This document shows positions 40,301 to 46,300 of a stretch of DNA of 64,000 nt, in pieces. Origin of the DNA: Tubiluchus corallicola. Taxonomy: Eukaryota; Animalia; Priapulida. Numbering within the stretch: the stretch's first letter is position 1; each line of letters begins with the position of its first letter. The notes beneath the pieces are model-generated. The model did no database searches and was not told the DNA's origin. It worked only from the letters and a program-made list of their open reading frames with translations. Both the position numbers and the translations under genes were made by a program. The DNA lies in the NCBI GenBank assembly GCA_030141605.1, contig JAQGDQ010000133.1:434001-498000 (forward strand), given 5' to 3'.

Positions 40301-43300
40301 TTGTTGATGATGATGATGATGATGATGATGATGATATCACGATGATAATGCTAACGACGATAATTAGCGATGCAAAGTAAGCATGCTCCTCTAAATTGAA
40401 GTGGGTCACTCAAACCGGTTAACCACGCGGTCTGCTCAGATACATTGGCACTGTAGTAGAAGCAATGGTAAAATAATTGGTTTAAATAAACCGTCTCAGT
40501 TCAGACACAATGTTACACCACGCATGCGTCCTACTCCATAGTTAAATGAGTGTTGCAAATGCGCCTCTGCTTCTCGGCATTTCATTTAGAGGTGTCGGGA
40601 TTGAGGTACCAAAGCTGAAGTGCCTAGCTGAGGTTGACGAGTTCACGGAAACCAAGACAGCAGAACTTGATCTGCTTTTGAAACTTATAATAGCTTTCCC
40701 TAATATTTATTACGTATCAACAGGGTAGATCGCCTTCAAAAGTTTAGTGATCTGATTTACGTCACAAATATGTAGAAAGACTCGCTAACTCGCAACTAAA
40801 GGTTTAGTTTAATCAAAGACTGTGTTTGGAAAAGAAACATTAATTTTTAGGTGGGAAAAACGGCTATTAATAATATTCCGCAACCATTATTAGATGAGAA
40901 AATAAACAGCGACTAAACGTTTAATTAAGCACTTCGTTTTGTTTTTTTGGTGATCACACTTTTCTAAATTATTTATGTGTTTTCACAGTGGTTTGGAAAC
41001 CTCATTACTTGTGCTTGGTGGTCTGACTTGTGGATCAACGAAGGTTTCGCCACCTACTTTCAATACATTGGATGCGATTTTGCTGAGCCAACGTGGGAGA
41101 TGGTATGTGAGAATGTTGTTATTAAGTTTCTGCCAGCAATTAGTAGGCTGATGCCAACGAAGCCACTGAAGCTTGCTGCTTTTTTGTTTTGCTGCTAACT
41201 GCAAACTTCTTACTGCTAAACATCGCTCGCTAAAGCATCGTAAATATGTACTTCTGAAATAAGTGTGTAGCTATTTCAGTGCAAGAAAGAAAGAAAGAAA
41301 GAAAGAAAGAAAGAAAGAAAGAAAGAAAGACAGAAAGAAAGAAAGAAAGAAAGAAGGAAGGAAGGAAGGAAGGAAGGAAGGAAAGAAAGAAAGAAAGAAG
41401 GAAGGAAGGAAGGAAGGAAGGAAGGAAGGAAGGAAGGAAGGAAGGAAGGAAGGAAGGAAGGAAGGAAAGAAAGAAAGAAAGAAAGAAAGAAAGAAAGAAA
41501 GAAAGAAAGAAAGAAAGAAAGAAAGAAAGAAAGAAAGAAAGAAAGAAAGAAAGAAAGAAAGAAGAAAGAAAGAAAGAAAGAAAGAAAGAAAGAAAGAAAG
41601 AAAGAAAGAAAGAAAGAAAGAAAGAAAGAAAGAAAGAAAGAAAGAAAGAAAGAAAGAAAGAAAGAAAGAAAGGACGAACGAACAAAACAAAGAAAGAAAG
41701 TAGGAAGAAAAGAAAAAAGAAAAAGAGAAAAGAAAGGAAAGGAAAAAAGAGCAAATAAATGTAGAAAAATAACAAAGAAAAGTGACACCGACGAAAAAAG
41801 AAAGATTAAATGAATGAATCAATGAATGAATAAATTGAATTGAATAAATGATAGAATAATCGAACGAAAGAAGGACAGAAAGATACTGGGGCAATAAGCA
41901 AGGAAGCAAGCTAAAGAGCGTGCAAAATAGAAGGAGATCAGCAAAGTTATGGCTTCATTCGAAATTTATTTACTTTCGAAATACCCGATGCACCAGAAAC
42001 AAAAAATGTGGAGTAGCGCAAAATATTGTCAAGCTCATAAATGTTTTCTCTTCGCACAGGAAGAAATCCAGTTTGCCAGCGACATGATCCCAGTTGCTTT
42101 AGCTTATGATTCAATGACGTCATCCCATCCTGTCATAAATGACGCAATGACACCCTATGAAATTGAAGCCATTTTTGATCATATAACTTACCGAAAGGTG
42201 ACTCACTTAGCTTAAAATAACTAGACTACTTAGCATGTACAGCTGGAAGAGTAGTAACAAATTTAGCATTAGCTGTTTTTAAAATTTAATTTAGCTATTT
42301 AGCAATGCAAAGTTAACATGTCATTGGCAAGCTGCATATCTTCCTGCAGCAAATGTCTAAAGCATAATGGATAAGGCAGCGGACGTTTCCGTTGTGCTCT
42401 TGAAATGTTATATAGACAGAAAGAGCACCGCTAGTCAGCATGTTTGGTCGACTTCGATAGTAATCTATTCTTAAGAAAAAGACTTTTGCACTGTACATAG
42501 GAGCACCAAATGAGCAACTGATCCACGTTAATTTTGTGATATCTTTTATATGGAGAGAGGGCGTGGTTCTGCTAAGTAACACTAGCAACAAAGCCACCTG
42601 TTCACTTCTATAAGTACTTTTAATAAGCAAATTAGCAAAAGTTCTCCTATAAAATCTCCTTCGCAATTTTTCAAGCCATTGCTCTTGTTTGATTGCTTCC
42701 TTTCATATTTGTTTGCTAGTCTGCCTAAACGTCTGCTGTCTGCATGTCTGCATGTCTGCCTCTCTGTCTGTCTGCCTGTCTGCTGTCCTATCTGTCTGCT
42801 CTCTCTCTCTCTCTCTCTCTCTCTCTCTCTCTCTCTCTCTCTCTCCCTCTACCTCCCTCCCTCCCTTTCTTTCTTTATTTCTTTCTCTCTCTCTTTCTCT
42901 CCCTCTCTCTGTCTATCTGTTTTGTCTAGCTGGTATCTAACTAGCTGGTTATCTAGCTGGCTGCCTGGCTGTTTTCGTGTTTGTCCGCCTGTGTGTCTAG
43001 TTACCTGCCTGTCATCTTTTATTTTCGATTATGCTTTGACTAATTCGACGTAATTATGTTAAAATTCAAGAATAACAAAATTATTTTATTTCTTTTTAAA
43101 ACAGCAACTAGTTTTTTTGTACTTACTGCTTACCAGAGTGAAAAGGTTATATGGATCAAAATGGCGAAAGGAGCGAGCAAACGAACTGTGATCAAATATT
43201 AAATTTTTATATTTCTTTGCATACAGGAAGAAATTCAGTTTGCTAGTGACGTTTTACCATTAGCTTTTGCCTACGATTCAACGGCAACTTCACATCCAGT

Positions 43301-46300
43301 TGTAAACGATGCAGTAACGCCACTTGAGATTAGAGCTATTTTCGATCGTATCAGTTATCAAAAGGTGATTTCCACAGGTGTTGTAATTTTATGTAACTGA
43401 ATATAAAAAATAAATGTCTAACTTAACTTGTAAATTTATAATTTTACCCGCACTAGCACCAACGGCAATGGCAATGGCAACGATGGCAACGATGACAACG
43501 AATACGATGATAATGACGACGACGACCACCACCACAACAAAAACAACGACAACAGCAGCAATAATAGGACTTTTGTAAATTTCCGTTTTATAAAAAAAGG
43601 CAATTCTAAAGGAAAGGAGAAAAATGTAATAATAAAAGCAATTTTTAAGAAAAGGCCAAGTTTTCTGGGCACTTAGGTTAATTTCAAGGTTCGCGAAAAA
43701 TGTTAGATGATTTAGTAGTAAAAATGCGATAAGCGTTTCGTAAAAGTAAAACCACTTCAAAATAGCGTCGCGATTAAATAAAATGCGTTATTTAAAAGTC
43801 GCAACCACCAATTTTGAGTGAACATTTTTCCACCAATATCATGTCATTTCGTCGACTGAAGAAAAGTAGCTAATTCTCAATTTCCATCAAAATTACAATA
43901 AGTTTTTGTAAAAAAATAGCTAGCTAATTTTTAATGAAAATTAGGTAATTTGCAAAAATTTGAATTAGTGTAAACAGCGCGCATTGGTGGAAAATCACGA
44001 TGTTCACCAGTTACCTCATAATTTTCACGTGAATGGCGGTTACCACCGCGCCTGAAATTTTTTTACAACTGCTGTATGAATTATTAGTATGCTTTATAGA
44101 CAGTCTTTTGCAAATTTCTTTGTTATATTTTTTTAGTTTATGTGATAGCAGGAAATTCAACCCATATACTAAATGGCGTGTCCTTTACTTTAATAAATAT
44201 ATTGGGAAGCCTTTTTTGCCTTCATGCAAAAACCAGTACTAAATCGTAAAACACCTTCACCTACAGAATAAGTTGTACTTACGCAAACATTCACAAAATT
44301 CGTTTAATCCAAAAGGCAACGTTCATATGCACTCTGCTTTGCGGCTCCGGTTCTGTTGCAAATAGTGACTGAAAGTGACCAGTTGCATTTTTTGGGTAAT
44401 ATACTACATAGAATATTTCGCAGAACATTCGTTTATAAGTTTTTTTCTGTTACTAACAATTTATTTCTCCTATAAGTTTCGTAATGGTTGAAATTAATGG
44501 TTTAACAAGCTTCATTGCAAATAAAAGCACTTTGTTTTCCAAGGGTGGATCAATTTGTCAAATGTTAGCAGATGTTGTAGGAAACGAAATCTGGAAAACC
44601 TCATTGACGGCAAGTATATTTGTACATTGTTGATCATTTTGCGACTAAAATTAAAGCGACTAGTATAATTGGAGGCTACATTTCTGGTTAAGTTTTGCCA
44701 GGGTTAAACAATAATTATTATGTACAACAAAAAGCTAAAATATATATAGATTTAACAATTATAACTACAATTAGAAAATTCGAATATTCATTGTTAATCA
44801 AATTATAATTTACATACTTGTTGACTATGTATATTTACAAAGTACTACGCATTTGCAATGAATTTTATGTACAGAGCCTATAAATACAGTGTATGTCCAA
44901 CATTTTTTAGGCATTTCTGGATGAACATAAATACGGAAGCGTATTTACTGATGACTTGTGGAATACTTTTCAAACAGTAAGCATTTGAACAGTTTCGGCT
45001 ATCACTAAATAATTCTTGTCATTTGGTTAAGTCCAAAAGTGCACTACACAATTTTTGCATTTTTTTTAATTATCGGTGATTATAACCAATTATCAATTAT
45101 TGATGACTTATTTGAGCATAATTTGAACTATTTTAAAATAGTTGATTCTAGGTAATCGTGAAAAAATTGTTTCAAGCATTAAAAAACGACAATGATAAGA
45201 ACGAGCGAAAACGTAGTTCAAGTTTTCGTTGTACAGCGGCCAAAAAACTAAAGTGTTCATTCCAGGTTATTGACTCCAACGAGTCGGATCCTTTTGATAA
45301 CAAAACAGTAAAAGAAGTTATGGATACGTGGATGTTACAAATGGGTTATCCTTTACTGAATGTAACACGTGATTATACTGGGAACAAAGTAACAATCACA
45401 CAGGAACACTACTTGCTGGATCCCGAGTCAGAGCCTCCTAGCAGCGATTTTGGGTAAATATGAATTGATCATCGTTATTTTACTATTGAAGATGGCTTCA
45501 TTTACACCTTTTTATTGCAAACTAATGCTCGAAGCAGTAAAACTAATGCGCGCTTGAAACTTTTAAGAAATGTTGCGAGGCATGCCCGACACAATTATTT
45601 TCAGACGCATAATTTACCCTAAGGAGTAATTAAGTCGCCTACTGGCTCCTTGCAACAGCATGTTGGCTTCTTTTCAGGGTAGGTATTCTATTTGTACACT
45701 ATGCTGGAAGCCAAATGGTGCACCAGGTTTGCACGCGTTTCTAATTGTCGTCGATGCACTAAACACTTTAGTGAATTTTCAGTAGGCCTTTCACTGATAC
45801 TCACAGACAAAAGTAAGAAAAAGCGTGCTTGCTTAATACCCCACAAGCACTTTCGATTTGAATATACCAAAGAGAAGCTACCAAATACGAGATGATTTTA
45901 ATTAATGATAATGGATTTCAATAGTTGCTCTACCACGCTTTGATTTCTGCTTTACACTGTACTGCTCATTTTTCTGCTAACTTTCTATATCTAATCTTTC
46001 TTGGCTACTCTTAAATTTTTACAATGAATGTCTTTGAATGACACGCACAAAAACGTTTTGTCATTGCTGATTTAAAAAGCGGAATGAATTTTTCCTAAAA
46101 GAAAGCTAAAAATGGCTTACTTTTCCCAAGTTCCGTACTGCAAAGTAATGATGCCATGTCAATACAATACAATTTACTAAAAATATTTTATACTATAATA
46201 TCACAAATTGTATGTGATTAATTAACAAACTCCATTAATTAATGTATTAATTGTATGCTTAGTTATTTATGGGAAGTACCTTTACGATACAGCACGCCCA

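Follow-up and report, generated by a model that had tools for sequence, protein, structure and literature searches.

We analysed a window of 64,000 nucleotides from the priapulid Tubiluchus corallicola (GenBank assembly GCA_030141605.1, contig JAQGDQ010000133.1, positions 434,001 to 498,000), and all coordinates below are those of the window. It contains an M1 aminopeptidase N-like gene, here called gene B (34368-48694, +), and a paralog on the other strand, gene A. Our model of gene B has 15 exons plus an extra copy of exon 7. The two copies, 7a and 7b, lie in tandem between exons 6 and 8 and both encode part of the active site. The exons and the residues that concern us most are the following.

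42060..42197 (+): exon 7a, 138 nt, phase 0-0, with Glu at codon 36, His41 and Arg45; matches Pfam Peptidase_M1 positions 119-161
43227..43364 (+): exon 7b, 138 nt, phase 0-0, with Arg at codon 36, Arg41 and Gln45; matches Pfam Peptidase_M1 positions 121-161
42165..42167 (+): Glu codon GAA in 7a, aligned to ERAP1 R430, ERAP2 Q447, IRAP E541 and APN S469
43332..43334 (+): Arg codon AGA in 7b, at the S1 position equivalent to the Glu codon of 7a
42174..42191 (+): S1 Phe (APN F472) to catalytic Tyr (APN Y477) in 7a
43341..43358 (+): S1 Phe (APN F472) to catalytic Tyr (APN Y477) in 7b

Conservation of the two exon 7 copies

Both copies are open, and each has an AG upstream and a GT downstream. They are identical at 99 of 138 nt (72%) and at 32 of 46 residues, and 17 of the 32 residues in common are encoded by codons that differ silently. 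Among the 14 residues that differ are those at codon 41 (His/Arg) and codon 45 (Arg/Gln), next to the Tyr, while the catalytic Tyr and the S1 Phe are present in both copies. A first-pass annotation, made from the letters of the window, had reported these exons, counts and codons together with a single copy of exon 7 in gene A. Our recount and a search of the window agree with it on each of these points. Gene B is open for 763 codons with either 7a or 7b. Protein and DNA searches of the window with each of the 35 exons modelled in genes A and B gave no second intact duplicated exon. The 200-nt flanks of 7a and 7b are no more alike than shuffled sequences (P 0.31 and 0.19).

The same annotation had proposed that the duplication is old and that both copies are constrained. 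We found that the proportion of differing sites between 7a and 7b is 0.708 at silent positions (pS) and 0.166 at replacement positions (pN; Fisher p 6e-8). The corresponding dN/dS is about 0.09 (bootstrap 0-0.29), with silent sites near saturation. Differences between the copies are distributed 9/6/24 over the codon positions and include no gaps, whereas a dead paralog remnant at 11.2-12.7 kb, compared with gene A at similar DNA identity, has mismatches of 13/11/12 and also gaps. None of 4000 neutral simulations begun from either copy and run to 0.5 substitutions per site passed the stop, splice-site and identity tests. Conservation was scored over 226 of 279 family segments, namely the full-length ones that have Pro or Gln at column 24 (XP_014663075.1 left out). 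None of the 14 differences falls in the 13 columns that are at least 85% conserved (P 0.003). At replacement sites the distance to gene A is equal for 7a and 7b (pN 0.331 and 0.327). Our comparisons thus support an old duplication of which both copies appear to have been under purifying selection for a long time.

Several results pull the other way. At 0.1 substitutions per site 44% of the simulated neutral copies still pass (8-44% over 0.1-0.2 substitutions per site), and therefore only long-standing neutrality is excluded. Lowering the cut-off to 80% gives 15 conserved columns, which hold two of the 14 differences (P 0.076). In a small self-trained matrix the donor of 7a scores lowest of the 34 scored and that of 7b ranks 28th. 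Finally, eight of the nine changes that could be polarised are on 7a (p 0.039), with five more ambiguous. Exon 7b is the copy closer to the outgroups and 7a the derived copy. Since gene A has Arg at codon 36, the Glu of 7a is likely the derived state, and 7b, which has its Arg in common with paralog A, likely represents the older form.

Gene B, its paralogs and its relatives

Gene B matches gene A intron for intron, and all of its introns are GT-AG or GC-AG. Exon by exon it matches Pfam PF01433 above cut-off, and exons 5 and 6 supply the GAMEN motif and the HEXXH-X18-E zinc motif. With an anchor and stalk read from sequence, the product is a predicted membrane M1 aminopeptidase, and its activity would be zinc-dependent. 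The other exons of gene B and the outgroup exon of gene A are listed here.

34368..35032 (+): gene B exon 1, with start codon, hydrophobic anchor, Ser/Thr-rich stalk and the start of domain I; PF17900
37231..37386 (+): gene B exon 2, single copy, with the APN Q211/Q213 equivalents, both Gln
38475-38598 (+): gene B exon 3, with a GC donor
39175-39295 (+): gene B exon 4
40000..40154 (+): gene B exon 5, with the GAMEN motif and HEXXH
40989..41102 (+): gene B exon 6, with the third zinc ligand Glu; its donor faces 7a or 7b
44544-44609 (+): gene B exon 8, with a GC donor
44911-44976 (+): gene B exon 9
45266-45453 (+): gene B exon 10
46263..48694 (+): gene B exons 11-15; exon 15 ends in a GT donor
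27103..27240 (-): gene A exon 7, single copy, with Arg at codon 36; used as outgroup

Gene A is a complete 19-exon paralog of 979 codons (18741-31534, -). It lies head to head with gene B, with 2.8 kb between the start codons. It has His at the APN Q211 position, Tyr in place of Trp after HEXXH, and Ser at the F896 position. A third paralog is represented by decayed remnants at 11214-11500 and 12546-12696 (+), facing gene A; they correspond to gene A exons 10 and 19, are about 75% identical to them and contain stops and gaps. Three of the 33 introns in genes A and B are GC-AG (38599 and 44610 on the + strand, 28049 on the - strand), at different positions in the two genes.

The 3' end of gene B speaks against a working gene. 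Gene A ends in four exons that encode about 215 residues of domain IV. They have no gene B counterpart in the 15.3 kb from 48695 to 64000, and the profile used in this search does recover them in gene A. This absence had not been mentioned in the first-pass annotation. The longest other intron is 2.2 kb, as against 15.3 kb without terminal exons. Gene B may have a very long intron here or may be cut short, and its terminal exons possibly lie beyond the window. By eye, 48695-64000 holds degenerate, transposon-like sequence, and an assembly break is a further candidate reason for the missing exons. A tandem array of a 27-nt unit, also seen by eye and open in several frames, lies at 62040-62620. 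At the other end of the window, 6896-7654 (+) is an open frame for a rhodopsin-family seven-helix receptor (PF00001).

One 196-nt contig of run X2, a run whose RNA nature is a guess, skips introns 8 and 9 of gene B at about 91% identity, and four of its five listed codon changes relative to gene B are silent. This shows that gene B or a close relative is spliced; the contig covers exons 8-10 only. One of the introns that it skips is a GC-AG intron.

The closest database protein is the aminopeptidase N-like XP_014663075.1 of Priapulus caudatus, the only protein returned with 7b as query (10 candidates scored). Genes A and B group with it at 100/99 support in a tree of the catalytic block. The tree had 43 rows, made up of three from the window, XP_014663075.1 and every third of the other 119 matches, with no ERAP or IRAP rows. 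The Priapulus protein is identical to 7b at 29 of 46 residues but differs in having one annotated form, Gln at codon 36 and a scrambled model. Where exon 3 would be expected it has a block from domain IV, and it is probably a mis-joined model; it also ends with the exon that is the last one of gene B in the window. A metagenome scan gave four loci, all distant and single-copy, and no full adjacent double of the exon 7 segment was found in the 269 proteins checked. Proteins with several exon 7 matches were considered as tandem-copy cases and rejected, being fused whole genes or unrelated repeats.

The S1 position and swapped segments in other species

The profile match ends at ERAP1 440, ERAP2 457 and APN 479, and therefore codon 36 corresponds to ERAP1 R430, ERAP2 Q447 and APN S469. 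Codon 39 corresponds to F433, F450 and F472 of the same three proteins and codon 44 is the catalytic Tyr. Membership of the S1 pocket was taken from Table 5 of PMC6222927, where S469, R430, Q447 and IRAP E541 stand in one S1 column. The equivalence of ERAP1 R430, ERAP2 Q447 and IRAP E541, which the first-pass annotation had given, is thus right by the profile alignment and by this table. According to the review PMC3342382, IRAP carries two acids in S1, E426 and E541, and the change E541R made its profile ERAP1-like. The Glu/Arg pair of gene B is at the same aligned position and matches the E541R experiment. In ERAP1, ERAP2 and IRAP, however, the variants are separate genes, whereas in gene B they are two exons of one gene. 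Our comparison with these enzymes concerns equivalence of position and makes no claim of orthology.

An IRAP-like and an ERAP1-like enzyme from one gene had been predicted from the Glu/Arg pair. The E541R result favours this prediction, but the analogy concerns one of about 12 S1 residues. Gene B has Ser at the IRAP E426 position and, as in APN, Gln-Leu-Gln, with Gln at both the Q211 and Q213 positions, and its domain IV cap is outside the modelled sequence. Two further observations count against codon 36 as a specificity switch: in the same table APN S469 lies in S1 for only one of two structures, and codon 36 varies across the family (N 83, S 34, E 33 and T 32 of 226). Codon 45 corresponds to IRAP F550, which appears as an inhibitor contact in the relevant parts of PMC9558494 and PMC7593869.

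Isoforms of other invertebrate aminopeptidases N were compared as annotated RefSeq/GenBank protein models. Cluster members were listed for 30 of 120 homologs, mostly those with several members or isoform names, a sample biased by choice. This gave 28 same-species, same-annotation isoform sets from 26 species, clusters without such a set being left out. We found swapped homologous blocks in 16 of the 28 sets (14 of 26 species); the other 12 sets have only indels, terminal or point differences. All swaps fall in three segments, namely exon 7, the Q211/Q213 exon, and a block with the APN 891-898 loop and F896. All three carry S1 residues, with two of the mappings checked against solved structures. 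Exon 7 is swapped in the clam Mercenaria, and the Q211/Q213 exon in Watersipora, three oysters and Potamilus. The F896 loop block is swapped in 12 species (nine bivalves, the ribbon worm Lineus, Antedon and the mayfly Neocloeon), with up to five versions, and in Antedon the swapped stretch extends to the C-terminus. Oysters combine two swap cassettes, as does Mercenaria, with up to five versions. An oyster isoform without the whole exon 2 block is also annotated.

The closest parallel is in Mercenaria mercenaria, where isoforms X1 and X2 (XP_053387330.1 and XP_053387331.1) are of equal length and differ only inside exon 7, by 10 residues, as the predicted products of 7a and 7b would by 14. The Mercenaria pair is an independent duplication, with 36 of 46 residues identical within the pair and 17-20 of 46 across to 7a and 7b. 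The two pairs share the variable codons 9, 12, 30, 33 and 41. Both Mercenaria versions have Asn at codon 36, unlike the Glu/Arg of gene B, which is another point against codon 36 as a specificity switch. In this Mercenaria gene the F896 loop block, too, comes in five versions. It is a real possibility, which we put forward tentatively, that in invertebrate membrane aminopeptidase N genes the walls of S1 have repeatedly become exchangeable exon cassettes, formed by the strand with Q211/Q213, the helix with S469/F472/Y477 and the cap loop with F896. One gene would then have combinatorial specificities, and in gene B the swap from Glu to Arg would exactly reverse the charge of the residue by which IRAP and ERAP1 are told apart.

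Homologous alternative exons in enzymes are already known, and the catalogue PMC7954323, in the sections consulted, includes nine events that touch catalytic residues. The tandem exon duplications of PKM and KHK, as treated in sections of PMC8373072 and PMC7954323, resemble 7a and 7b in being adjacent, equal in length and phase, old and both conserved, with variable residues near the functional site. The gene B pair is known from genomic sequence alone, unlike the spliced PKM and KHK exons. None of 10 M1 aminopeptidase gene symbols, nor the word 'aminopeptidase', appears in the human table of 236 events in PMC8373072, which includes PKM and KHK, and the word 'peptidase' is absent from the main text and six text supplements of PMC7954323. 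Literature searches, with subscription papers mostly outside their coverage and fly catalogues not checked directly, gave no paper on swappable exons in M1 aminopeptidases. As far as searched, such exons in the S1 pocket of an M1 aminopeptidase are new. The first-pass suggestion that the switch was undescribed holds for the papers searched, but the case is not unique, since swaps of S1 segments recur among annotated invertebrate isoforms.

Proposed choice between 7a and 7b

We consider it likely, with some confidence, that 7a and 7b are alternative exons. Each mRNA would take one copy, because a second would duplicate 46 residues of the catalytic domain and an mRNA with neither would lack the catalytic Tyr. 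Alternative use, which had been proposed earlier, is favoured by the Mercenaria isoforms, which swap the same exon; against it, no contig of run X2 lies on, or joins into, 7a or 7b at 85% likeness. Frameshift surveillance was rejected as the mechanism of exclusivity, since models with both copies (809 codons, no stop) and with neither are also in frame. Incompatibility of U12 and U2 sites was rejected on the donors GTGACT and GTGATT, read against the U12 consensus, and steric hindrance is unlikely across the 1029-nt intron between the copies. A purine-rich tract upstream and a pyrimidine-rich tract downstream of 7a (41283-41700 and 42800-42923), microsatellite in nature and in opposite orientation, might form a duplex in the pre-mRNA, with about 75% complementarity over 100 nt. 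In absolute energy this duplex ranks first among 31 flanking-intron pairs. Since it is ordinary per base and the energy was not controlled for length, intron pairing was not counted. Since neither frame nor U12 sites nor RNA pairing accounts for exclusivity, splicing factors that act on the weak donors likely determine which copy is used.

It is probable that this choice shifts P1 preference. Having Arg, the 7b enzyme would disfavour basic residues at P1, and that of 7a, having Glu, would accept Arg or Lys there. The substitutions at codons 41 and 45 may affect contacts with more distant parts of the substrate. A different view, which we think unlikely though worth weighing, is that the exons are alternative but that Glu/Arg is not the main effect. 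The isoforms would then have a similar P1 preference and be set apart by turnover, by domain closure or by contacts past P1 that involve codons 41, 45 and others. The 14 differing residues, the inhibitor contact at codon 45, the Mercenaria swap that keeps codon 36 while sharing five variable codons, and the single listed structure in which APN S469 lines S1 are all in keeping with this. However, a single change at IRAP E541 was enough to move selectivity towards ERAP1, and all swaps elsewhere involve S1 segments. In addition, paralog A has Ser at the capping F896 position, which would mean a deeper pocket if gene B is similar.

It is rather improbable that either one copy, with 7a the likeliest candidate, or all of gene B was long functional and recently fell silent, with only 7b spliced or gene B truncated. 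The weakest donor and the excess of derived changes on 7a, the four terminal exons not found up to 64000, the dead paralog remnant nearby and the survival of simulated copies at low divergence would all fit such a history. It is opposed by the 16 exons of gene B without a stop, gap or broken splice site, by the equal distance of 7a and 7b from gene A at replacement sites, by the splicing of exons 8-10 in run X2, and by run X1, possibly the source run, in which none of the listed differences falls inside 7a or 7b. Very improbable are a single mRNA joining both copies, with a 46-residue tandem insert, and an assembly artefact of two haplotypes or paralogs: the both-in model is in frame and no single X1 contig spans both exons, but no adjacent double occurred in the 269 proteins, alleles would not be expected to be 72% identical in DNA and to have unrelated flanks, and run X1 holds each copy on a contig with its own intron flanks.

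On balance we favour the view that 7a and 7b are intact, conserved tandem active-site exons, likely spliced as alternatives, and that the two resulting enzymes are predicted to differ in N-terminal residue preference. The copies with their splice sites and phase, the selection on their protein sequence and the S1 alignment of codon 36 are shown directly, whereas splicing, exclusivity and specificity are inferred. In vertebrates N-terminal trimming is shared out among separate M1 genes. If the exons are alternative, some invertebrates would do so by splicing inside one gene, and the exchange would be aimed at the pocket that reads the first residue. Natural isoform pairs that are identical outside 27-52 residues are suited to probing what sets S1 specificity, and the idea is directly testable in oysters and clams, where annotated isoforms show swaps. 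If it is true, single-isoform annotations would undercount the peptidase specificities available in digestion and peptide signalling.

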